From: Escherichia coli
GTDB lineage: Bacteria; Pseudomonadota; Gammaproteobacteria; Enterobacterales; Enterobacteriaceae
Assembly: GCF_050920415.1 (NCBI RefSeq)
Contig: NZ_CP169309.1
Strand: one strand, 5' to 3'
DNA: 64,000 bases
Shown: piece after piece, positions 1,290 to 13,226 of the stretch
How the letters are laid out: each line of letters starts with the position of its first letter
How positions within the stretch are numbered: position 1 is the first letter of the stretch
Notes under the pieces: model-generated
Database searches by the model: none
The model's input: only the letters and a program-made list of their open reading frames with translations
Told to the model about the DNA's origin: nothing
Position numbers and translations under genes: made by a program

Positions 1290-2045
1290 TCAGAACTTAT
1301 AACCACGATGCAGCGCCACAACCCCTGCCGTCAGGTTGTAATAGTCGACACTTTCGAATCCAGCATCCTGCATCATAGCTTGCAGGGTGTCCTGATCGGG
1401 ATGCATGCGGATAGATTCAGCAAGATAACGGTAGCTGTCAGCGTCGTTCGCGACCAGTGAGCCAATACGCGGCAGCACATGGAAGGAGTAAGCGTCATAG
1501 GCCTTACTTAACGGCTCGATAATCGGCTTCGAGAACTCAAGCACCAGCAGTCGGCCGCCAGGTTTCAGAACGCGATACATTGAACGCAGAGCTTTATCTT
1601 TGTCAGTGACGTTACGCAGACCAAACGAAATGGTGATGCAATCAAAGGTGTTATCCGGGAACGGCAGCGCCTCAGCGTTCGCCTGAACATACTCAACGTT
1701 GCCAATCACACCAATATTACGCAGCTTCTCGCGGCCCATTTTGAGCATGGATTCATTGATATCAGCAAGGACCACTTTGCCAGTTTCACCCACCAGGCGG
1801 GAGAATTTCGCTGTCAGGTCGCCAGTACCGCCTGCCAGATCCAGCACGGTCTGCCCGCGGCGTACGCCACTGCAATCAATCGTGAAGCGTTTCCACAAAC
1901 GATGTATGCCAAAAGACATCAAATCATTCATGACATCGTATTTCGATGCCACGGAATGGAAAACGTGGGCGACCATATCCGCTTTTTGTTCCTTCGCGAC
2001 GGTCTGAAAACCAAAGTGCGTCGTTTCTTGTGACTTATCCACCAT
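1290..2045 (-). CDS. ubiE: UbiE C-methyltransferase (ubiquinone/menaquinone), 251 aa
   Basis: Track ORF 251 aa, [16 protein letters not shown]..., SAM-MTase motif LDLAGGTGD. Confidence 0.95.
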
Positions 2046-2139
2046 CTCAATGCCTGCTCATCAAAAAATTGTTCCAGAAGTGTAACAGATTGGGCGTCGA
2101 TGCCCTAGATTTCTACCCGGCTTAACTACCCCCAATGGG

Positions 2140-3567
2140 CTAGCGCGACTGCTGATTATATTCATCATCGCGTTGATAAGCTTCATCATTCGGCTGCTCC
2201 GGTACCGACCGCAGTCGATACTCTTCATCCTGGCTCACCGCTTGTTCAGCCAAATCCGGATTAATCTCGCGTTTAATTTCTACTCCTAAACCGCGAAACG
2301 CTTCTGCTTGCGCCAGCACATTTCCGCGACCTGAAGAGAGTTTTTTCATTGCCTGGCGATAGTTATCCTGCGCTTTGTCGAGACTTTGACCAATCGCGGA
2401 CATATCATCGACAAACAAGCGCATTTTGTCGTACAACTTGCTGGCACGATCGGCTATTTTCTGAGCGTTGCGGCTTTGATGCTCATAGCGCCAGAGGTTG
2501 GCGATAGTGCGCAGCGCCACCAGCAGCGTGGTCGGGCTAACCAGCATGATATTGTTTTTCAACGCTTCGGTGATCAGCTCCGGCTGGCGGTCAAGCGCCA
2601 GTAAAAATGCGGGCTCAACAGGGATAAACATCAGCACGTAATCCAGGGTTCGTAGCCCCGGCAGCTGTTGATAATCTTTACGTCCCAGCAAGCGGATGTG
2701 GTTACGCACCGACGCGATATGTTCCTGTAGCGAGCTTTCGCGGGTGTAGTCGTCTTCTGCGTTGAAATAGCGTTCATAGGCGACCAGCGTCATTTTGGCG
2801 TCGATCACCACATCTTTTCCGTGCGGCAACCGCACGATGACATCCGGCTGCATCCGCGAGCGGGCGTCATTTTCGATGCTGACCTGGGTTTCATATTCAT
2901 ACCCTTCACGCAGACCGGAAGCCTCCAGCACACGCGTCAATACTACCTCGCCCCAGTTGCCCTGGGTTTTATTGTCGCCTTTCAGCGCACGCGTCAGGTT
3001 GATCGCTTCCTGGGCCATTTGCGCGTTGAGCTGCTGGAGATTGCGTATTTCGTGAGTCAGGGTATGGCGTTCTTGTGCTTCTTTACCGAAACTGTCCTGA
3101 ACCTGACGACGAAAATCGTCCAGTTGTTCACGTAGTGGCGACAACAGGCTGTTCAGACTCTGACGGTTTTGCTCATCAACCCGGCGATTGCTGTGCTCGA
3201 AAATACGGTTGGCGAGGTTTTCAAACTGCTCACTGAGGCGCTGTTCGCTGTTGATCATTTGGCGAATTTTATCGTCAGCATGTTGCTGTACAGCCTCCAT
3301 TCGCGTGGTGACTTCACGCAGATCCGCCTCCAGCGAGGTGTTAATGCTTTGCAGACTGCGCACTTCATTATTGAGTAACTCGCACTCAGCACGCCAATGT
3401 TCGCTTTGGGTAATTTGTTGTTTTGCCGCACTTAACTCCGCGACCATCTCTTCACGTTCAGCGAATTGCTCGGCTTTTTGCTGCGCATGCTGATAACTGG
3501 CAATCAGCCAGCCAATCGCCACGCTCACCAACGCAATAACTGCGTAAACCATGATTGAGATATCCAC
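2140..3567 (-). CDS. rmuC: RmuC DNA recombination protein, 475 aa from GTG
   Basis: Track frame 2140..3660; GGAGG 4 nt before GTG at 3565-3567 (VDISIMVYAVIAL...), which matches the 475-aa length I recall for RmuC; ATG five codons downstream is the alternative start. Confidence 0.85.
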   Translation of the reverse strand: MDISIMVYAVIALVSVAIGWLIASYQHAQQKAEQFAEREEMVAELSAAKQQITQSEHWRAECELLNNEVRSLQSINTSLEADLREVTTRMEAVQQHADDKIRQMINSEQRLSEQFENLANRIFEHSNRRVDEQNRQSLNSLLSPLREQLDDFRRQVQDSFGKEAQERHTLTHEIRNLQQLNAQMAQEAINLTRALKGDNKTQGNWGEVVLTRVLEASGLREGYEYETQVSIENDARSRMQPDVIVRLPHGKDVVIDAKMTLVAYERYFNAEDDYTRESSLQEHIASVRNHIRLLGRKDYQQLPGLRTLDYVLMFIPVEPAFLLALDRQPELITEALKNNIMLVSPTTLLVALRTIANLWRYEHQSRNAQKIADRASKLYDKMRLFVDDMSAIGQSLDKAQDNYRQAMKKLSSGRGNVLAQAEAFRGLGVEIKREINPDLAEQAVSQDEEYRLRSVPEQPNDEAYQRDDEYNQQSR

Positions 3568-3685
3568 AACGCCTCCAGCCTCATTACTTACCCGCACAAA
3601 ATAGAATTGTGCTGTACAAACGTCCAGTTTGAAAGAAGTTTCCTGCGAGGCGCTACGCAAAACGATCCTTAATTTTTATTATTTT

Positions 3686-3722
3686 ATCCCACAATATGAG
3701 ACGTAGTTTATATTGTGGGATA
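3686..3722. promoter_or_regulatory. Perfect 13-bp inverted repeat TATCCCACAATAT-N11-ATATTGTGGGATA, candidate operator in rmuC/IclR-gene divergent spacer
   Basis: Read directly; lies 58-94 bp upstream of the IclR-family gene ATG. Confidence 0.5.
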
Positions 3723-3779
3723 TATCACCTTTTCCCCACGTCATTATGTGGAACACTTCAGCAATATCATCAGGAGAAA

Positions 3780-4550
3780 CGTATGGCAGATACCTCTTCA
3801 ACCACCGCTGGCGCACAAACGTTATTACGCGGGCTGGCGGTTCTTAATGCTGTTTATAACGGCTGCCATGACCTGAAAAGTATCGGCGAGTTCACCGGCA
3901 CGACCCGGAGCACAACCCATCGTTTAGTCACCGTTCTGGTGGAACAACGCTACCTGCGCCACGTCCCAACGCAGGGCTACCAACTGGGCGCCAAACTGAT
4001 CGAATTCGGTGCCAGAGCGCTGGAAAGCACCTCGCTGTACGAAGTTGCGCTGCCCGTTTTGCAACGCCTTGCCCGTTACACCCTGGACACCGTGCATCTG
4101 GGGATCGTTGAAGGCGACGAAGTGCTGTATCTGGAGAAGATCAACAGCCAGCGCGGGCTGGAAATGCGCTCACGCCCAGGCCATCGCATGCCACTGGCAA
4201 TCACCGGCATCGGCAAGGCATTGATCCTCAACCGAACAGAAGAAGAGTGGCGCACGCTGTTTAAGACCTGTGGTGATGAAACAAAACTGGGCGCATTTAT
4301 TCAGAACATGCGTCGTTATGCCGCCAGTGGTTTTGCTTTTGATCTGGAAGAGAACGAGCCGACTATCCGTTGCGTTGCAGCGCCGGTTTACAACGCCCGG
4401 GATGAAATTGTGGCGGCTATTTCTGTCGCCAGTACCACTACGTATATGTCACTGGCGCGTCTGGAAGAACTGGCACCTTACGTCAAATCCTGTGCAGAAG
4501 AGATATCCGCTGAACTGGGCTGGGGTAAGCACGTTCACAAAAATAAATAA
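3780..4550 (+). CDS. IclR-family transcriptional regulator, 256 aa
   Basis: Track frame 3696..4550; start set at ATG 3780 (MADTSSTTAGAQTLLRGLAVLNAV...) with AGGAG 6 nt upstream; N-terminal HTH then effector domain typical of IclR/KdgR-type regulators. Confidence 0.8.
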   Translation, partial: RMADTSSTTAGAQTLLRGLAVLNAVYNGCHDLKSIGEFTGTTRSTTHRLVTVLVEQRYLRHVPTQGYQLGAKLIEFGARALESTSLYEVALPVLQRLARYTLDTVHLGIVEGDEVLYLEKINSQRGLEMRSRPGHRMPLAITGIGKALILNRTEEEWRTLFKTCGDETKLGAFIQNMRRYAASGFAFDLEENEPTIRCVAAPVYNARDEIVAAISVASTTTYMSLARLEELAPYVKSCAEEISAELGWGKHVHKNK

Positions 4551-4573
4551 ACCATGACTAAAGGAAACGGCTA

Positions 4574-5578
4574 ATGTCGGGAAACACCTCATTTATTGCC
4601 CTGGACTGGGGAACGTCATCGCTTCGGGCATGGCGTTTTGGCGACTCACCCAATCCACAAGAAAAACGTGAATTCCCGTGGGGGATCATGAAATTACCCT
4701 CCCAGGCAGCAACACGTGAGGACGCTTTCCACGATACGTTTTTACGTGTCTGCGGCGACTGGCTGGCACAATCCCCATGCCCGATTCTGGCTTGCGGCAT
4801 GATCGGCAGTGCGCAAGGGTGGCAACCCGCAGCTTATTTACCTTGCCCGGTCACTCTCGAGGGTCTGGCAAAGCAGTTGACGCCTGTTATCTACCAGCAG
4901 CAGACAATGCTGCACATCATTCCCGGCGTGATTAAAGAAGGTGAAATGCCCGAAGTGATGCGTGGCGAAGAGACACAAATCTTCGGTGCTATCTCGATGG
5001 AACCGGCCCTGCAAAACGCGCTCCGCCAGGGTATGCCTGTGCTGATTGGCTTACCTGGCACACATGCGAAATGGGCGGTAGTTGAAAACAACACCATTAC
5101 CGATTTTCGAACCTTTATGACAGGCGAGTTATTTGATGTTTTATCCCGCCATTCGATTCTCGGTGCCACCATGCGTTCGGGAGATGAACCGCACTGGGAT
5201 GCCTTCGCCCACGGGCTGACAGCGGCACAAGAGCATCATCAGACCGGATTATTATCGACGCTGTTTTCGACCCGTTCGCGCCTGCTGACCAGTAATCTTA
5301 CGCCGTCCTCACAGGGGGATTACCTTTCAGGATTACTGATAGGCCATGAATTATGCGGTCTGGCATCCAGTTTGCTACGTGATTTACCCGCCACAACACC
5401 GATCGCCTTAATCGGTAGCGCCACTCTGAACAGCCGCTATTCACAAGCATTCAGCCACGTTTTTCCCGACAGACAGCTACACGCCATTCCTAATGCCACT
5501 GAACAGGGGTTATGGCGAATCGCCCACGCTGCCGGGCTACTCTCCACCAACGCCAGGGAATGTACTCATGCCATTTAA
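4574..5578 (+). CDS. 2-dehydro-3-deoxygalactonokinase (DgoK)-family sugar-acid kinase, 334 aa
   Basis: MSGNTSFIALDWGTSSLRAW..., ...MRGEETQIFGA..., ...FRTFMTGELFD... align with my recollection of E. coli DgoK; about 40 aa longer at C-terminus. Confidence 0.75.
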   Translation: MSGNTSFIALDWGTSSLRAWRFGDSPNPQEKREFPWGIMKLPSQAATREDAFHDTFLRVCGDWLAQSPCPILACGMIGSAQGWQPAAYLPCPVTLEGLAKQLTPVIYQQQTMLHIIPGVIKEGEMPEVMRGEETQIFGAISMEPALQNALRQGMPVLIGLPGTHAKWAVVENNTITDFRTFMTGELFDVLSRHSILGATMRSGDEPHWDAFAHGLTAAQEHHQTGLLSTLFSTRSRLLTSNLTPSSQGDYLSGLLIGHELCGLASSLLRDLPATTPIALIGSATLNSRYSQAFSHVFPDRQLHAIPNATEQGLWRIAHAAGLLSTNARECTHAI

Positions 5579-6197
5579 TACGCTTTTGCAAAAAACCGGG
5601 TTAGTCGCCATTTTACGCGGCGTGAAACCGGATGAGATTGTCGCCATCGGTGAAAAGCTGTATGCCTCTGGATTTCGCCTGATTGAGATTCCCATGAACT
5701 CGCCGGAGCCGTTGCAAAGTATCAGTTTACTGCGCGACGCCCTGCCTAAGGACTGCCTGGTCGGAGCCGGAACTGTGCTTTCGGTGGAGCACGTCGTCGC
5801 GGTTAAAGAGGCTGGAGGCCAGATTATCGTGATGCCGCATTGCGATACTGCGGTGATCCGTCGTGCCCGTGCGCTGGGTATGTATTGTGCGCCTGGCGTC
5901 GCTACGCCCACCGAAGCTTTTGCTGCCATTGAGCATGGTGCTAATGCCATCAAGCTGTTCCCGGCTGAACAAATTACGCCTGAAGTCACCAAAGCCTGGC
6001 GTGCGGTTATTCCACAATCCGTTCCGATGTTACCGGTTGGCGGTATCACTCCGGAAACCATGGCGCGTTATCTGAGCCACGGTGCAAACGGCTTTGGTCT
6101 CGGTTCTGCGCTTTATCGCCCTGGCATGACGCCAGAGCAGGTCTATAAAAATGCAGTACTGTTTATGAACGCATGGACCAATTTAAACAACAACTAA
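5568..6197 (+). CDS. KDPG/KDPGal-aldolase family protein (DgoA-like), 209 aa
   Basis: Track frame 5493..6197; start set at ATG 5568 (MPFNTLLQKTGLVAILRGVKPDE...), overlapping the kinase gene by 11 nt; aldolase motifs AILRG, GAGTVL, PVGGIT. Confidence 0.75.
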   Translation: MPFNTLLQKTGLVAILRGVKPDEIVAIGEKLYASGFRLIEIPMNSPEPLQSISLLRDALPKDCLVGAGTVLSVEHVVAVKEAGGQIIVMPHCDTAVIRRARALGMYCAPGVATPTEAFAAIEHGANAIKLFPAEQITPEVTKAWRAVIPQSVPMLPVGGITPETMARYLSHGANGFGLGSALYRPGMTPEQVYKNAVLFMNAWTNLNNN

Positions 6198-6221
6198 CTG
6201 ATAAATAAGGATATAAAAACA

Positions 6222-7196
6222 ATGATAAAACATCTTACCTTACCGAAAAAAATGGCTGCAATGGTACTCCTTGCCGGCGCTTCCCTCAGCACTGCGCCTG
6301 TGCAGGCGGCCTCCTACCCAACCAAACAGATCGAGTTAGTCGTACCCTACGCGGCCGGAGGCGGTACGGATCTGGTTGCCCGTGCCTTTGCTGATGCCGC
6401 CAAAAACCATTTGCCCGTCAGCATCGGGGTTATCAATAAACCTGGCGGTGGCGGCGCTATCGGCCTGAGTGAAATCGCCGCTGCCCGCCCTAACGGTTAC
6501 AAAATGGGTTTAGGCACGGTTGAACTGACCACCCTTCCCAGCCTCGGAATGGTGCGTTTTAAAACCAGCGACTTTAAACCCATTGCCCGTCTGAACGCGG
6601 ATCCGGCTGCTATCACCGTCCGTTCTGATGCGCCGTGGAATAGCTATGAAGAATTTATGACTTACGCCAAAGCGAATCCCGGAAAAGTACGCATTGGTAA
6701 CTCAGGCACCGGAGCAATCTGGCATCTGGCGGCAGCTGCACTGGAAGACAAAACGGGCGTGAAGTTTTCTCATGTCCCATATGACGGCGCAGCCCCTGCC
6801 ATTACAGGCCTGTTAGGCGGGCATATTGAAGCGGTTTCCGTAAGCCCAGGTGAAGTTATCAATCATGTGAAAGGCGGCAAGCTGAAGACACTGGTAGTGA
6901 TGGCGGATGAACATATGAAAACCATGCCTGACGTACCGACGTTAAAAGAGAAAGGCGTTGATCTCTCCATCGGCACCTGGCGCGGTCTGATCGTGTCGCA
7001 AAAAACGCCGCAGGATGTGGTTGATGTTCTGGCTAAGGCCGCAAAAGAGACGGCTGAAGAGCCTGCATTCCAGGATGCTCTGCAAAAGTTGAATCTCAAC
7101 TATGCATGGCTTGATGGTGCCAGCTTCCAGACCCAAATCAACGAACAGGAAAAGTACTTTGACGAGTTACTAACTCGGCTGGGCTTGAAAAAATAA
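6222..7196 (+). CDS. tctC: Tripartite tricarboxylate transporter (TTT) periplasmic substrate-binding protein, TctC/Bug family, 324 aa
   Basis: N-terminal signal peptide (MIKHLTLPKKMAAMVLLAGASLSTAPVQA); AAGGGTDL motif typical of TctC/Bug proteins. Confidence 0.8.
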   Translation: MIKHLTLPKKMAAMVLLAGASLSTAPVQAASYPTKQIELVVPYAAGGGTDLVARAFADAAKNHLPVSIGVINKPGGGGAIGLSEIAAARPNGYKMGLGTVELTTLPSLGMVRFKTSDFKPIARLNADPAAITVRSDAPWNSYEEFMTYAKANPGKVRIGNSGTGAIWHLAAAALEDKTGVKFSHVPYDGAAPAITGLLGGHIEAVSVSPGEVINHVKGGKLKTLVVMADEHMKTMPDVPTLKEKGVDLSIGTWRGLIVSQKTPQDVVDVLAKAAKETAEEPAFQDALQKLNLNYAWLDGASFQTQINEQEKYFDELLTRLGLKK

Positions 7197-7212
7197 TCCC
7201 GAGGTACGGTCG

Positions 7213-7719
7213 ATGAACACAAAACAGTCTGTTGCTCAACTCGCCGTACCGCACCGCAAGCGCCTTTCATCCACTGTGGTGGTGGCGCTGTTACTTTGTG
7301 TGGTTGCTGGCGCGGTGATAATTAATGCCGCTGATTTTCCAGCAACTGCCATTGAAACGGATCCCGGTGCAAGTGCCTTCCCTACTTTCTATGCCTGCGC
7401 TCTGATTGTGCTCGCTGTCTTACTGGTGATACGCGATCTTTTGCTGGCAAAACCAGTCCCTTGCGCCAACGCACAGGAAAAACCGGCATTAAGGAAAACG
7501 GCAACAGGAATTGCGGCAACCGCGTTTTATATTGTGGCGATGAGCTACTGCGGTTATCTCATTACTACTCCTGTTTTCCTCATCGTCATTATGACGTTGA
7601 TGGGCTACAGGCGATGGGTACTCACACCGGGTATTGCGCTGCTGTTAACGGCAATCCTCTGGTTGCTGTTTGTCGAAGCGTTACAGGTGCCATTGCCTGT
7701 CGGCACATTTTTCGAATAA
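7213..7719 (+). CDS. tctB: TTT small membrane subunit TctB, 168 aa
   Basis: Small hydrophobic multi-TM protein between tctC-like and tctA-like genes. Confidence 0.75.
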   Translation: MNTKQSVAQLAVPHRKRLSSTVVVALLLCVVAGAVIINAADFPATAIETDPGASAFPTFYACALIVLAVLLVIRDLLLAKPVPCANAQEKPALRKTATGIAATAFYIVAMSYCGYLITTPVFLIVIMTLMGYRRWVLTPGIALLLTAILWLLFVEALQVPLPVGTFFE

Positions 7720-7731
7720 CAGGGGCCTGCA

Positions 7732-9222
7732 ATGTTTGAAAGTGAACTTTTAACTCAGGGGTTTTCGACATTACTCAGTAATCCTCAGGCGCTGCTGTTT
7801 GCCACGTTTGGAGTGATGCTGGGTATTATGATTGGCGCTCTGCCTGGCCTGACAGCGACCATGGGTGTGGCGATTTTGCTGCCTTTCACCTACGGCATGG
7901 AGCCTGTTTCTGGCTTATTGATGATTTGCGGTGTCTTTTTTGGTGGTGTGTATGGTGGTTCTATCACCGCAATTTTGCTCAAAATTCCCGGTACACCTGC
8001 CGCCGCTGCCACCGCCATTGACGGATATGAGCTGACGAAGCAGGGAAAAGCCGGGCTGGCGTTAAGTGCCGCCACGTTCTCTTCTTTTAGCGGTGGAACG
8101 CTCAGCATTATCGTATTGATGTTTCTCTCTCCGGTACTTGCCAGTTGGGCGTTGAAATTTAGTGCCTCGGAGTCCTTCGCCCTGGCAACCTTCGGGCTAA
8201 GTATTATTGCCAGTATTTCCGGTGAGTCACTGATTAAAGGGCTGATTGCCGGGGTTGGCGGATTGCTGATCGCAACGATAGGCCTTGATCCAATGGGCGG
8301 TTTTCCACGCTTTACAGGTGGATTTGTGGAGCTGATGAATGTGCCATTTATCCCGGTGATGATTGGTCTGTTTGCTGCTTCAGAAGCATTCCGCTCTATG
8401 GAGCAAAACCAGCAAATTCGTCAGGGGGCGAAGGTGGCTATCGGCAGTCTGTTACTGCCCTGGCAAACACTACGCCGCATCGCATTAACCATTTTGCGCT
8501 CATCAGGATTAGGGGTTTTTATCGGCATGATCCCCGGTGCGGGGGCAGATATTGCAGCTTTTGTTGCCTATAACGAAACTCGTCGTTTCAGTAAGACGCC
8601 TGAAAACTTTGGTAAGGGTGAGATTAAGGCGGTGGCCTCCTGTGAGGCAGGCGCGAATGGCTGCACCGGTGGCGCATTGTTACCTATGCTGACGTTGGGG
8701 ATCCCAGGCGATGCGGTAACTGCCATCATGCTGGGCGCGTTAACGTTACAAGGGATGCAGCCAGGCCCACTGATGTTTACCGACCACGGCGATATGGTTT
8801 ATACGCTGTTTGTCGGCATGATCTTTTGTTACTTCATGCTGCTAGTTCTTGGACTGCTCTCTTTGAAAGTCATCGGTAACGTGGTGAAGATCCCCGGCAA
8901 TATTCTCACGCCGATGATCCTCGCGCTTTGTGTTGTTGGGACTTATGCGCTGAACAACAGCCTGTTTGATGTTGGCATTATGCTGATTGCAGGCGTGGTG
9001 GGCTATTTCATGCAAAAAGGGGGGTATCCGGCGTCACCCGTAGTGCTGGCATTGATTATGGGGCCAATGGCGGAAAGTAATTTTCGCCGTGCGCTGTCGC
9101 TTTCAGGGGGGTCACTCGACTTCCTGTATACCCGACCGATAACCCTGGCATTGCTGACTCTGGCAGCCTTTACGCTACTGACGCCAATAATACGCAAAAT
9201 TATGCGCTTACGGCGTCAGTAA
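7732..9222 (+). CDS. tctA: TTT large permease subunit TctA, 496 aa
   Basis: About 500-aa polytopic membrane protein with Gly-rich helices, directly after tctB-like gene. Confidence 0.8.
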   Translation: MFESELLTQGFSTLLSNPQALLFATFGVMLGIMIGALPGLTATMGVAILLPFTYGMEPVSGLLMICGVFFGGVYGGSITAILLKIPGTPAAAATAIDGYELTKQGKAGLALSAATFSSFSGGTLSIIVLMFLSPVLASWALKFSASESFALATFGLSIIASISGESLIKGLIAGVGGLLIATIGLDPMGGFPRFTGGFVELMNVPFIPVMIGLFAASEAFRSMEQNQQIRQGAKVAIGSLLLPWQTLRRIALTILRSSGLGVFIGMIPGAGADIAAFVAYNETRRFSKTPENFGKGEIKAVASCEAGANGCTGGALLPMLTLGIPGDAVTAIMLGALTLQGMQPGPLMFTDHGDMVYTLFVGMIFCYFMLLVLGLLSLKVIGNVVKIPGNILTPMILALCVVGTYALNNSLFDVGIMLIAGVVGYFMQKGGYPASPVVLALIMGPMAESNFRRALSLSGGSLDFLYTRPITLALLTLAAFTLLTPIIRKIMRLRRQ

Positions 9223-9276
9223 TTGATATCGCTCCCCGACGTTGGGGAGTATGAGACTGATGACAAACGCTAAATT

Positions 9277-9376
9277 GCCTGATGCGCTGCGCTTATCAGG
9301 CCTACCACAGAAATGCAATATATTGAATTTGCATGCTTTTGTAGGCCGGATAAGGCGATCACGCCGCATCCGGCAT
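9277..9376. repeat. REP pair (BIME) in tctA-udp spacer
   Basis: gcctgatgcgctgcgcttatcaggcctac and gtaggccggataaggcgatcacgccgcatccggca, inverted REP consensus units. Confidence 0.8.
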
Positions 9377-9407
9377 GAACAAAGCACACGTTAACAACAA
9401 TCGGAAT

Positions 9408-9437
9408 GCTCCCCGACGTTGGGGAGCGTTTTTTTAT
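9408..9437 (+). terminator. Hairpin GCTCCCCGACGTTGGGGAGC followed by T7 run; intrinsic-terminator-like, oriented for plus strand
   Basis: Stem CTCCCC/GGGGAG then TTTTTTTATTT; sits just before udp stop; a copy of the hairpin without T-run occurs at 9231-9249. Confidence 0.5.
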
Positions 9438-10198
9438 TTCAGCAGACGACGCGCCGCTTCCACCACGATTTTCACCGCATGGCTTTCGGTTTGTTTCATC
9501 GTCTCAGCATTCGGGATCTCTTGCTGGGTACGATTGACGATAACGCCCGCCACCATACCCGCACGCAGGCCCTGGCTTGCACACATGGTCAGCAGGGTTG
9601 CAGATTCCATTTCATAGTTCATTACGCCCATCGCCTGCCACTCTTCCATAGAACCTTTAAAGTGACGGACTACACGACCAGAGTAAGTATCGTAACGTTC
9701 CTGACCTGGGTAGAAGGTATCAGAAGAAGCCGTCACACCAACGTGAGTGGTGGCACCAATTGACTTCGCCGCTTCAACCAGCGCGGTCGTACATTCGAAA
9801 TCTGCGACAGCCGGGAACTCCAGCGGAGCGAAGTGCAGGCTCGCGCCATCCAGACGAACAGACGCCGTGGTCACCAGCACATCACCCACATTAATATGCG
9901 GCTGGATAGCGCCCGTTGTACCGATACGCAGGAAGGTGCGAATGCCCAGCTGTGCCAGCTCTTCAACCGCAATAGAGGTAGACGGGCCGCCGATACCGGT
10001 AGAGCAGACGATAACAGGTTTACCATCCAGCTCTGCACGCCAGGTGGTGAATTCGCGGTGAGATGCCAGCTTAACCGGCTTATCCATCAGCGCGGCGATC
10101 TTTTCCACACGATCCGGGTCGCCAGGGACGATGGCAAGCGTAGCCCCTTGTAAATCGTTTTTAGTGAGGCCGAGATGAAAAACATCATACTTGGACAT
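9434..10198 (-). CDS. udp: Uridine phosphorylase, 254 aa
   Basis: Track [38 protein letters not shown]...; start set at second in-frame ATG (MSK...). Confidence 0.9.
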
Positions 10199-11272: not shown

Positions 11273-11663
11273 TTTCCTCTTAGTCTATATTTGAGATGGT
11301 GAGTGAACGAATGCGTTTTGCTGCCATCTCTGTCCCCCAAAAAATAATCAGTATGAATTGATTGGAGAGCACGACTCCGCTATTTGACCTTAAGAAAGTC
11401 GGCAAGTCATAGTCATAAATGAGTCTCTTCACTGGCAGACACCTTAAAGATTTACCATCAACTCCCATTCTCAAACAAACATTAATTATTATCAACACAT
11501 TCACATTAATTATAAATTATCTCAGACCTTCCTGATAAAAAGATATTAAAGTGAAACATTTTGTTTTTCACATTTTAGTTCATCCCTATTAGGCGTAAAT
11601 AAAGGTAAAAAATAACAATACTATTTTTCTTTCACAAAAGAATTAACAAAAGGTTTTTCAAGG

Positions 11664-12062
11664 ATGAGTGATATTATTTACCTGACCATAACCGGAGAAC
11701 AACACGGATGTATTTCCTCTCGTTGTGGAACGAGCACATCAATAGGTAATCGCTGGCAGATTGGTCATGAAGATGAAATCTTCGCGTTCTCGCTCTCTAA
11801 TAGTATTACGAATACAGGAAAAGGGTCACATTTGCATGGCCTTAGTTTCTGTAAGTTGATTGACAAAAGCTCCCCGTTACTTATTAACGCTATTAACAAT
11901 AACGAGCAGTTGTTCATGGAGTTTGACTTCTATCGGATCAATAGATTTGGTCGATGGGAGAAATATTACAACATTCAACTCCGCGGCGCGCTCTTATCAG
12001 CAATCAATCACCTGTTTACGGAGAACAATCTGGATACAGAAACCATCACTGTCAGTTATTAA
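11664..12062 (+). CDS. Hcp-family (T6SS tube protein) domain ORF, 132 aa, ends at TAA in frame with the downstream toxin-like ORF
   Basis: MSDIIYLTITGEQHG...GKGSHLHGLSFCKLIDKSSPLL...FDFYRINRFGRWEKYYNIQL fits the Hcp-family pattern; AT-rich. Confidence 0.7.
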   Translation: MSDIIYLTITGEQHGCISSRCGTSTSIGNRWQIGHEDEIFAFSLSNSITNTGKGSHLHGLSFCKLIDKSSPLLINAINNNEQLFMEFDFYRINRFGRWEKYYNIQLRGALLSAINHLFTENNLDTETITVSY

Positions 12063-12107
12063 TATATACTCTCCAGGCATCTGATTGCTAATACTGAATT
12101 TAGTTAT

Positions 12108-12812
12108 TTGGCATTTCCCGATAACTACAATCGTCTGTTTATACCACGGCCAAAAACTAAAGATGATAATGGCCTCAAAACACTCAATAGTAAAGCTGTT
12201 GGCAGACTGCTTGCTGCTGGCGGCATATACAATGGGAATATCGAAGGATTCAGGGAAACAGCAAACAAGTTGGGGGGAGATGCACCTGCTGGTTACGATC
12301 AAGTTATGGATAACAAAGGGTTACTCATCGCTGGTGCTTCAATAGTTGCTGGAGCAGTTCTGGGGAGAATGAGACTCCCTGATTTGGAATCACTTGAGCA
12401 TTTCGGAGCCAGAGGAGCAGTATCAGGAAGACCATTTAATCCCGACCTTGCCGGTGGTCCAATAGAAAATCTGACGACAGATGGCGTAACAATCAACAGG
12501 GAAGGTATCGCTATTGTTGAAAAACACATAGCCAGATTTGGTCATGACCCTGTAAATGAAGTGATGATCAATAGACTGAAAGACATTGAGAAAGGAAAAA
12601 TCCCCCCAGAACAAGTAGATCTTAACTTCTATACTCATGAATGTCGGGAATATCAGCGTTACTGTAATCTTGGTTGGGAAACAGGACAACCTGATGGTGA
12701 CGCAGGCTATGCACTCTGGAATCATACGCATACTGCTACTCTAGAAGATTATAAACTTAAGGGAGAACTTAATGACTTATACCACCAGGATGCACTTGAC
12801 TATGATAACTGA
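12108..12812 (+). CDS. Toxin-like C-terminal domain ORF (class undetermined), same frame as upstream Hcp ORF; 234 aa from TTG
   Basis: Same reading frame as 11664..12062 with only one stop (TAA 12060-12062) and 15 open codons between; no ATG or SD of its own. Confidence 0.6.
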   Translation: MAFPDNYNRLFIPRPKTKDDNGLKTLNSKAVGRLLAAGGIYNGNIEGFRETANKLGGDAPAGYDQVMDNKGLLIAGASIVAGAVLGRMRLPDLESLEHFGARGAVSGRPFNPDLAGGPIENLTTDGVTINREGIAIVEKHIARFGHDPVNEVMINRLKDIEKGKIPPEQVDLNFYTHECREYQRYCNLGWETGQPDGDAGYALWNHTHTATLEDYKLKGELNDLYHQDALDYDN

Positions 12813-13047
12813 AACTGAAATTAACGTACTGAAAGTTATGGCTGAGAAAGATATAAACTGGAACTGGATGAATCTCGATCGCACACTATCTATAAGGCAA
12901 ATTCCAGGATTCGGTAATGTTGTTAACATTGTTAACAAATTAGCTAACGAGGGTTTGGTTATTATTGAGGATAGCGGACATAAGTCTATGCCTCACTACC
13001 ACGTTACTGAAAAGGGATACAATCTCGTGAAAAGTGAGAATAAATAA
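12802..13047 (+). CDS. Small putative immunity protein, 81 aa
   Basis: ATG at 12802 overlaps the toxin ORF stop (ATGATAACTGA); track frame 12772..13047. Confidence 0.55.
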   Translation: MITETEINVLKVMAEKDINWNWMNLDRTLSIRQIPGFGNVVNIVNKLANEGLVIIEDSGHKSMPHYHVTEKGYNLVKSENK

Positions 13048-13141
13048 CGTAGCGTTGATTACTGAACAAATCGCTCAGGATTATATTTTGCGAAAAAAAT
13101 GATTCGGTTATTTCTGTGTCTGAACGGCCGCAGATAGCAAA

Positions 13142-13165
13142 ATGGCTTCCGGTGATGGAAGCCAT
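13142..13165 (+). terminator. 9-bp stem hairpin ATGGCTTCC-ggtgat-GGAAGCCAT downstream of the islet
   Basis: Perfect inverted repeat read directly; weak T tract (cagattattgg). Confidence 0.3.
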
Positions 13166-13195
13166 CAGATTATTGGCAAAGTGCGTGTTGTTCAT

Positions 13196-13226
13196 GCCGG
13201 ATGCGGCGTGAACGCCTTATCTGGCC
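13196..13226. repeat. REP element
   Basis: gccggatgcggcgtgaacgccttatctggcc. Confidence 0.75.

Follow-up and report, generated by a model that had tools for sequence, protein, structure and literature searches.

Introduction

In Escherichia (E.) coli, the dgoRKADT operon encodes a DGOK-family kinase, followed by an overlapping class I aldolase of the DgoA subfamily, and the pathway ends in pyruvate and glyceraldehyde-3-phosphate. The operon also encodes a dehydratase (DgoD), a GntR-type regulator (DgoR) and a permease of the major facilitator superfamily (DgoT). In the KdgR regulon (kdgT, kdgK and eda), which is closest in logic to the system discussed here, an IclR-family regulator controls genes by which a ready-made 2-keto-3-deoxy-hexonate is imported, phosphorylated and cleaved, so that no dehydratase is needed. 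The scattered genes of this regulon encode a kinase of the PfkB family (KdgK), an aldolase of the Thr-161 type (Eda) and a single-component permease (KdgT). Here, we describe a six-gene operon located between rmuC and udp in a 64,000-nucleotide stretch of E. coli DNA (contig NZ_CP169309.1), referred to below as the window. It is probably a keto-deoxy sugar-acid catabolic operon that is served by a tripartite tricarboxylate transporter (TTT), and it is a gap-filling target rather than a new kind of biology.

The founding TTT is the citrate transporter TctCBA of Salmonella, with which the transporter of the operon shares the three-component architecture and the Pfam families. The only experimentally studied sugar-acid TTT found in the literature searched is the alginate TTT of Vibrio sp. 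C42, the periplasmic substrate-binding protein (SBP) of which (PDB 25HK, 2026) is 39% identical to that of the E. coli operon. The Vibrio protein differs in that it binds unsaturated oligosaccharides, and its locus encodes lyases, KdgF, DehR, KdgK and Eda. In Salinivirga fredricksonii HL-109, the gene of an IclR regulator clusters with dgoK and the three genes of a TTT, for which transport of a sugar acid was proposed (PMC5507952); this is a prediction only, and neither the aldolase nor the dehydratase of that genome, which is non-orthologous, is linked to the locus (PMC5507952).

When compared to dgoRKADT, the operon between rmuC and udp differs in several respects. Its kinase and aldolase are paralogous to DgoK and DgoA of the same strain, as an earlier sequence-only reading of this DNA had proposed, but the identities are only 33% and 47%, respectively. 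The regulator is of the IclR rather than the GntR type and the transporter is TctCBA rather than a permease of the DgoT type. DgoD, DgoT and DgoR are all absent from 3568-9433, and all three are encoded elsewhere in the genome.

Gene Content of the rmuC-udp Operon

The layout was obtained from a listing of open reading frames (ORFs) and from the RefSeq annotation of E. coli MFDS1022581, which is 100% identical to the window over 3400-9600. The rmuC-udp intergenic interval spans exactly 3568-9433, and the operon and its flanking genes are arranged as follows:

2140-3567, − strand: rmuC, the left flank of the operon
3783-4550, + strand: IclR-family transcriptional regulator, 255 amino acids (aa), the first gene of the operon (Pfam IclR_C and HTH_IclR)
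4574-5578, + strand: DGOK-family (ASKHA) sugar-acid kinase, 334 aa, a DgoK paralogue (Pfam PF05035)
5568-6197, + strand: class I aldolase of the 2-keto-3-deoxy-6-phosphogalactonate/-gluconate (KDPGal/KDPG) type, 209 aa, with an 11-nt overlap with the kinase gene (NF006600)
6222-7196, + strand: TctC/Bug-type periplasmic SBP, 324 aa (Pfam TctC)
7213-7719, + strand: small membrane subunit TctB, 168 aa (Pfam TctB)
7732-9222, + strand: large membrane subunit TctA, 496 aa (Pfam TctA)
9434-10198, − strand: udp, the right flank of the operon

Both sources confirm the six + strand genes with gaps of 23, −11, 24, 16 and 12 nt that had been read from the sequence, and searches with hidden Markov models (HMMs) bore out all six family assignments, i.e., IclR, DGOK, DgoA-type aldolase, TctC, TctB and TctA.

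The regulator displays an N-terminal HTH_IclR domain (PF09339, 9e-8) and a C-terminal effector domain IclR_C (PF01614, 2.3e-37). The NCBIfam models for BhcR, KdgR and PcaR were matched over the full length at scores below the cutoffs (142 against 350 bits for BhcR, 127 against 275 bits for KdgR), and no equivalog cutoff among these models was reached; in this respect, the regulator differs from that of the KdgR regulon. Its start at 3783 is that assigned by the Prokaryotic Genome Annotation Pipeline, while an alternative longer ORF from 3696 would cross an inverted repeat that is discussed below. Because only 23 nt separate the regulator gene from that of the kinase, the regulator and the structural genes probably share one transcript.

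The kinase covers the entire DGOK model (PF05035, 1.6e-89, positions 1-281 of 281) and its relatives in the PDB include the 2-keto-3-deoxy-D-galactonate (KDGal) kinases 3R1X and 3T69 (~1e-36); none of the NCBIfam models matched this protein. The aldolase scores 319.6 bits against the model for KDPGal aldolase (NF006600, cutoff 207) and retains the Schiff-base Lys126 as well as Glu37 and Val154 (E. coli DgoA numbering). The TctC protein (PF03401, 1e-53) has 4X9T, 25HK and BugD as relatives in the PDB, and its N-terminus looks like a signal peptide, with …APVQA before and ASYPTK after the putative cleavage site. Its closest solved relative is 4X9T from Polaromonas, at 52% identity, which is an apo protein of unknown ligand (PMC5812351). 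TctB (PF07331, 1.4e-20) and TctA (PF01970, 2e-151) complete the transporter, for which the gene order is C-B-A with gaps of 16 and 12 nt. By family content the locus encodes a TTT, the transport function of which is predicted.

The Pfam families of the transporter were named after the Salmonella citrate system (PMC5812351), and it could be argued that the locus encodes a citrate or tricarboxylate importer that happens to reside beside unrelated sugar-acid enzymes. This explanation is highly improbable. The transporter genes are close-packed with those of the kinase and aldolase, an association that is kept across phyla, and a TctDE two-component system is absent from the locus. Furthermore, the substrate range of TTTs is broad (PMC5812351), and the Vibrio relative of the SBP failed to bind citrate (PMC13390454).

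Proposed Function

What the sequences show are the families of the genes, their catalytic residues, the layout of the operon, the signature of purifying selection and the retention of the module across bacteria, while the ligand, the reaction order, the operator and the physiological source of the substrate are inferred. The operon would mediate IclR-controlled uptake and phosphorylative aldol cleavage of a six-carbon 2-keto-3-deoxy acid, either KDGal or 2-keto-3-deoxy-D-gluconate (KDG), a scheme that we consider to have a slightly better than even chance of being correct. Here, the TctC-type periplasmic protein would capture the acid and pass it to the secondary transporter TctB/TctA. The DGOK-family kinase would then phosphorylate the terminal hydroxyl of the acid using ATP, and the class I (Lys Schiff-base) aldolase would split the phosphorylated acid into pyruvate and D-glyceraldehyde-3-phosphate. 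The IclR protein would repress the operon from a 13-nt inverted repeat until the acid or its phosphate binds. The substrate would most likely be KDGal, its C4 epimer KDG or both, obtained by scavenging of low concentrations that stem from other microbes.

The Module in Other Bacteria

The distribution of the gene set was surveyed by a homology search with the SBP, by look-ups of the genomic context and by a scan of one genome per species. The sequence IclR-DGOK-aldolase-TctC-TctB-TctA recurs in many alpha-, beta- and gamma-proteobacteria, including Rhodoferax, Azospirillum, Skermanella, Aquincola, Pseudoroseomonas, Brenneria, Photobacterium, Spirabiliibacterium, a Moraxellaceae metagenome-assembled genome and Klebsiella (K.) oxytoca. 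In the scanned loci (e.g., those of Azospirillum, Skermanella and Rhodoferax) the SBP and TctA are 56-66% and 62-73% identical to the E. coli proteins, respectively.

That the E. coli locus is devoid of a dehydratase, as had been noted from the sequence, holds for the enolase type, which was sought by tblastn with DgoD/ManD, while the IlvD/Edd types were not specifically searched for. With the same scope, no enolase-type dehydratase was found within ±10 kb at ~25 module loci from three proteobacterial classes; the sole DgoD/ManD match among ~88 loci (at L053) adjoins an unrelated paralogue. Clustering of the ORFs in the module flanks yielded no recurrent extra family, in an analysis that was degraded by spurious antisense ORFs in the high-GC genomes. 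The pairing of a TTT with this pathway, which the sequence-only reading had considered unusual, is thus on the evidence of these loci a common, self-contained module that lacks a dehydratase, and a similar locus was predicted already in 2017 (PMC5507952).

Most of the alpha- and beta-proteobacterial copies keep the order of the six genes and add a short-chain dehydrogenase/reductase (SDR) and often also an SMP-30-like protein, both of which are absent from the E. coli copy. The SDR is 61-72% identical over its full length to A1-R and A1-R′ of Sphingomonas sp. A1 (structures compared: PDB 3AFM, 4W7I and 4TKL), i.e., to reductases that convert the alginate monomer DEH, a 4-deoxy-5-hexosulose uronate, to KDG. 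In the protein collection, A1-R has its closest relatives in the taxa that also carry the module, and the A1-R orthogroup seems to be largely co-extensive with the TTT module. The very closest relative (83% identity) is a stand-alone gene, the context of which is uninformative. An operon of this extended type is found on plasmid p2 of Azospirillum (A.) brasilense Sp7 (L099, 8799-16354), where eight genes are arranged as IclR-DGOK-aldolase-TctCBA-SMP30-SDR. Here, tctA and the SMP-30 gene have 4 nt in common, and the SDR belongs to the A1-R-like type that is also found in A. thermophilum, the SDR of which is ~70% identical to Sphingomonas A1-R. In K. oxytoca, a second, more distant version of the module (L006, 4079-13003; SBP 64% identical) resides elsewhere in the chromosome. 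It is preceded by an extra, divergent iron-containing alcohol dehydrogenase (Fe-ADH) and another DGOK-family kinase, and is followed by another IclR gene.

The SBP orthologues are also found in other enzymatic contexts. In Firmicutes, they (50-66% identity) are accompanied by a PfkB kinase, for which the best NCBIfam model is that of a KDG/KDGal kinase, and by an Eda-type aldolase. In Clostridiales, their neighbors are a bona fide KduI (NF002091, 395 bits), a DGOK-family kinase (Pfam 1.4e-40), an SDR and an aldolase that scores as Eda. Because the SBPs of the DGOK, PfkB and KduI contexts share a common pocket signature, the comparison suggests one ligand class across all three. A separate clade of TTT SBPs in gut and rumen Succinatimonas, Succinivibrionaceae and Clostridia (loci L051, L055, L057-L059, L062-L064, L067, L076 and L077) displays the pocket signature Y-[A/S]-A-S-D ... 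S/A-G-G and is linked to an aldolase with a PTGDL motif; this clade presumably takes a different ligand.

Identity of the Substrate

The imported compound is, as judged from these gene contexts, a keto-deoxy-hexonate or one that is quickly converted to a keto-deoxy-hexonate, because the transporter orthologues adjoin a non-orthologous PfkB kinase of the KDG/KDGal type and an Eda-type aldolase in Firmicutes, and KduI, an SDR, a DGOK-family kinase and an Eda-type aldolase in Clostridiales. For the copies without a reductase, i.e., those of E. coli, Phytobacter, Buttiauxella, Pseudocitrobacter, a K. indica-like genome and Brenneria, direct uptake of a keto-deoxy-hexonate would be the simplest reading. 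The suggestion that the substrate enters already as a 2-keto-3-deoxy acid is therefore plausible and is the one we prefer, but it is not forced by the data, given the core DgoD of the genome and the reductase added in most non-enteric copies.

An alternative is high-affinity uptake of D-galactonate by the TTT, after which the core DgoD would dehydrate the compound and the accessory or core kinase and aldolase would complete the pathway. This possibility is consistent with the DGOK family of the kinase and the DgoA subfamily and Val154 of the aldolase, with the complete dgoRKADT operon of the strain, where DgoD is found ~150 kb from the locus, and with the resemblance of the SMP-30-type lactonase and SDR of many non-enteric copies to the galactose dehydrogenase and lactonase genes of the De Ley-Doudoroff pathway. 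Leyn et al. predicted in 2017 that the analogous Salinivirga HL-109 locus with IclR(GalR), DgoK and a TTT, in which the dehydratase (DgoD-II) and the aldolase are unlinked, encodes a D-galactonate transporter (PMC5507952), a prediction that is bioinformatic only. We regard D-galactonate as an unlikely ligand. The ~25 module loci are devoid of a linked dehydratase within the search scope given above, and the neighboring SDRs match the DEH reductase A1-R at 61-72% identity, well above generic SDR similarity. Moreover, since imported D-galactonate should derepress dgoRKADT through DgoR, a second kinase and aldolase would be redundant.

The same SDRs lead to another possible ligand, i.e., a 4-deoxy-5-hexosulose uronate released by lyase-bearing neighbors, either DEH (from alginate) or DKI (from pectin and glycosaminoglycans). 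In this case, an unlinked E. coli reductase or KduI/KduD would yield KDG, and the DGOK-type kinase and the aldolase would act on KDG and KDPG, respectively. Orthologues of A1-R/A1-R′ (61-83% identity) are joined to the module in Rhodoferax, Azospirillum, Skermanella, Aquincola, Moraxellaceae and others; the equivalent place is held by an Fe-ADH in the K. oxytoca-type locus and by a 2-hydroxyacid dehydrogenase in Brevibacillus, and KduI clusters adjoin SBP orthologues in Clostridia. The Vibrio C42 SBP, which binds unsaturated alginate oligosaccharides, is the second-closest solved relative of the E. coli SBP and the closest one for which a ligand has been reported, and six of its seven essential residues are identical in the E. 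coli protein (PMC13390454). Residues G24, T25, D26, P104, G183, T225 and R227 of the Vibrio protein are all identical in E. coli, while Ala/Asn and an invariant Pro are found in place of its S164 and E165. As already noted, the copies of E. coli, Phytobacter, Buttiauxella, Pseudocitrobacter, the K. indica-like genome and Brenneria have no reductase, and the RefSeq annotation reveals no alginate lyases, KdgF or DEH reductase in the E. coli locus and no lyases or KdgF near it. The aldolase scores with the DgoA subfamily, which predicts galacto stereochemistry, whereas DEH is converted to KDG. Uptake of DEH or DKI is on balance rather improbable for the E. coli transporter.

The stereochemistry of the substrate is where the lines of evidence diverge: the enzyme subfamilies point to the galacto compound (KDGal), while the neighboring reductases and KduI point to the gluco compound (KDG). 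By Fischer-projection reasoning, reduction of DEH yields KDG and reduction of DKI, the threo isomer derived from pectin and glycosaminoglycans, yields L-KDGal. Because neither reaction yields D-KDGal, the evidence from the reductases conflicts with that from the aldolase subfamily. Val154 of E. coli DgoA, in place of Thr161 of Eda, is regarded as a galacto marker in the structural literature on DgoA, and the residue initially co-varied with the kinase type, i.e., Val with DGOK and Thr with PfkB. As a decisive stereochemical marker it was rejected, since Eda-scoring aldolases that adjoin KduI carry Val and since the kinase and aldolase of a pair may simply be inherited together. A cross-feeding route, in which DEH, DKI or KDG would be obtained from lyase-bearing neighbors that degrade alginate, pectin or host glycosaminoglycans and in which the kinase and aldolase would be gluco-specific, is a minority possibility.

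Several observations weigh against direct uptake of KDGal or KDG as set out above. The same genome encodes DgoD in its core dgoRKADT operon, and free KDGal is not, to our knowledge, an established abundant environmental metabolite. A reductase and an SMP-30-like gene are found in most alpha- and beta-proteobacterial copies, such that the ancestral ligand may be one step upstream of the keto-deoxy-hexonate. A Val154-type aldolase and a DGOK kinase occur also in a KduI (i.e., KDG-forming) cluster, even though the E. coli aldolase scores with the DgoA subfamily. A promoter scan detected no sigma-70 consensus promoter on the + strand. Finally, a literature search on TTTs, galactonokinase, B2/uropathogenic E. 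coli and CFT073 returned only gene listings and no functional study of the E. coli locus.

Regulatory Region and Operon End

The noncoding parts of the operon contain the following elements:

3568-3782, + strand: 5′ regulatory region, which holds the left breakpoint (~3662) relative to K-12-type genomes
3685-3722, + strand: 13-nt inverted repeat, a putative IclR-type operator; perfect TATCCCACAATAT-N12-ATATTGTGGGATA, 61 nt upstream of the iclR start
9250-9426, strand not assigned: 177-bp insert of the REP/BIME type (repetitive extragenic palindrome/bacterial interspersed mosaic element) between tctA and udp, seen in comparison with the B2-type allele
9403-9442, + strand: intrinsic-terminator-like hairpin with a T-run at the operon end; 13-pair stem followed by TTTATTT in a terminator scan

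Between 3560 and 4600, the perfect 13-nt pair at 3685-3722 is the sole inverted repeat that was found. The B2-type allele carries this repeat unchanged, and half-sites of the related form TCCCA..TGGGA precede iclR in Phytobacter and Brenneria. We propose this repeat as the candidate operator of the IclR protein.

At the 3′ end, the terminator is probably bidirectional because the hairpin abuts the udp stop codon. The REP insert is bounded by a duplicated 18-nt hairpin, ctccccgacgttggggag, with copies at 9232-9249 and 9409-9426, whereas the B2-type allele has a single hairpin copy within a tctA-udp spacer of 33 nt and no REP insert. This comparison indicates that in the allele of the window, but not in the common B2-type allele, the terminator hairpin was interrupted by a REP-type element and 18 nt of the hairpin were duplicated. 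The REP core GCCGGATAAGGCG is found 6 times in the window, where 0.09 occurrences would be expected, and the element gives rise to extra BLAST places per genome in E. coli searches. An Rfam scan returned nothing beyond sub-threshold matches to the REP-derived small RNAs naRNA4 and ES036 at 9298-9380.

Distribution and Evolutionary History

The coding part of the locus is present in 1457 of 5426 complete E. coli genomes, and 1452 of these 1457 hold at least 80% of it in one piece. In the remaining genomes, including those of the K-12 type, rmuC and udp are ~140 bp apart. The locus is accessory in E. coli, occurring in about a quarter of the strains, in agreement with the sequence-only reading; the family HMM matches hold and the locus is not part of a core conserved in all E. 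coli. Two classes of alleles are found: ~18 genomes are 97.9-100% identical to the window, while a large class that includes APEC O2-211 is at ~96%. A further genome displays a match of 60-80% identity and may carry a K. oxytoca-type module. Carriers include APEC O2-211, UTI89-type and 83972-type extraintestinal isolates, and the strain names alone suggest that the carrier lineages belong mainly to phylogroup B2. A search of plasmids revealed only Azospirillum-type chromids and no enterobacterial plasmid copy. Public databases give only generic names for the proteins of the operon, while the genes are listed within "Region IVb" of strain 83972 (PMC2928814) and tctA was identified as a differentially expressed transcript in an enteropathogenic E. 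coli (EPEC) isolate (PMC4464170).

All six reading frames are intact. Between the window and the B2-type allele, the synonymous divergence (dS) of the six genes is 0.06-0.21, compared to 0.24 for rmuC and 0.16 for udp, and the ratio of nonsynonymous to synonymous divergence (dN/dS) is 0.009-0.29, e.g., 0.25 for the kinase, 0.08 for the aldolase and 0.009 for TctA; in tctA, 2 nonsynonymous differences are found next to 70 synonymous ones. The low dN/dS ratios between these two E. coli alleles indicate that the six genes are functional and under purifying selection. These ratios also argue against a view of the locus as a decaying remnant that has no current function in E. coli, which could otherwise be entertained because it is absent from 73% of complete genomes and because the REP element landed at its 3′ end in the window allele. 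Given the intact frames, a dN/dS of 0.009-0.29 over a dS of ~0.06-0.21, the near-complete retention in one piece among carriers and the differential expression of tctA in EPEC (PMC4464170), such decay is scarcely credible.

The junctions were defined by comparison with empty-site genomes. The left breakpoint is at ~3662 (3540-3800 compared to positions 1640-1830 of the empty site L002), and the sequence to the right of it is absent there. The right breakpoint is placed at the udp stop codon, in the 3′ end of the gene (9434-9439), because Udp of the carriers has an extra C-terminal lysine, i.e., it ends in ...RRLLK* rather than in ...RRLL* as in the empty-site genomes. No target-site duplication is seen at the breakpoints in this comparison.

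The six genes occupy the same rmuC-udp position in a K. indica-like genome, in Buttiauxella warmboldiae and in Pseudocitrobacter. In Phytobacter massiliensis, the module is found between ubiE and udp, directly after ubiE, and rmuC is missing (L004, 6302-6590). Relative to E. coli, TctC and TctA of these genera are 79-87% and 86-91% identical, respectively, values within the range of the proteins encoded by the flanking core genes, which are 71-79% (UbiJ), 78-84% (RmuC) and 82-87% (YsgA) identical. The kinase (48-59%) and the aldolase (60-68%) have diverged more than the transporter proteins. Protein clusters of the operon at 90% identity include members from E. fergusonii, E. albertii and E. 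coli IAI39.

The locus had been described as 5.6 kb of inserted DNA, which is not supported by these data. There is no mobility gene, i.e., no integrase or insertion sequence (IS) is annotated within 3568-9433 of the matching RefSeq genome, no target duplication, and a GC content of 0.48-0.56 across the locus that resembles both the flanks and the core, as the sequence-only reading had noted for both GC and mobility genes; hence the marks of a genomic island are not found. Because the same site is occupied in four other genera, close copies exist in E. fergusonii and E. albertii, dS matches that of the flanks, GC is core-like and mobility genes are absent, the operon is probably an old resident of this site in Enterobacteriaceae that was lost from most E. 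coli lineages, a more economical explanation than recent insertion.

Neighboring Regions of the Window

The adjacent ubiE-rmuC segment (1290-3560) is ~93.5-95.4% identical to nearly all complete E. coli genomes, while 5 genomes are at least 99% identical. Because the identity to nearly all other genomes is this low, the whole neighborhood, beyond the operon itself, would appear to belong to a divergent lineage or to a recombined segment.

Between ysgA and metE, a low-GC (0.36-0.44) islet is found at 11500-13200. A truncated Hcp/TssD-like ORF at 11664-12062, which the RefSeq record of the matching strain lists as a tssD pseudogene, precedes two ORFs of 234 aa and 91 aa, and the islet may be an orphan effector/immunity remnant of a type VI secretion system. 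The matching RefSeq genome has an IS2 copy in this islet. Because this copy does not seem to fit the ORF layout of the window, the two may differ outside 3400-9600.

Significance

No report of a characterized TTT in E. coli was found in the literature searched, and the operon marks a lineage-restricted metabolic trait in approximately a quarter of sequenced E. coli strains. Identification of its ligand would extend, by a substrate class, a transporter family in which most specificities are unknown, would settle whether enzymes of the DGOK/DgoA type also handle KDG, and would test whether the strains that retain the operon benefit in the gut or in urine from scavenging sugar-acid breakdown products. 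If the cross-feeding route with gluco-specific enzymes were true, the operon would encode the first DGOK-fold kinase for KDG, and carriers would have a high-affinity nutrient niche of their own in the gut or urinary tract. More generally, the link between the module and A1-R orthologues provides a concrete, testable function for a widespread operon of soil- and plant-associated proteobacteria.

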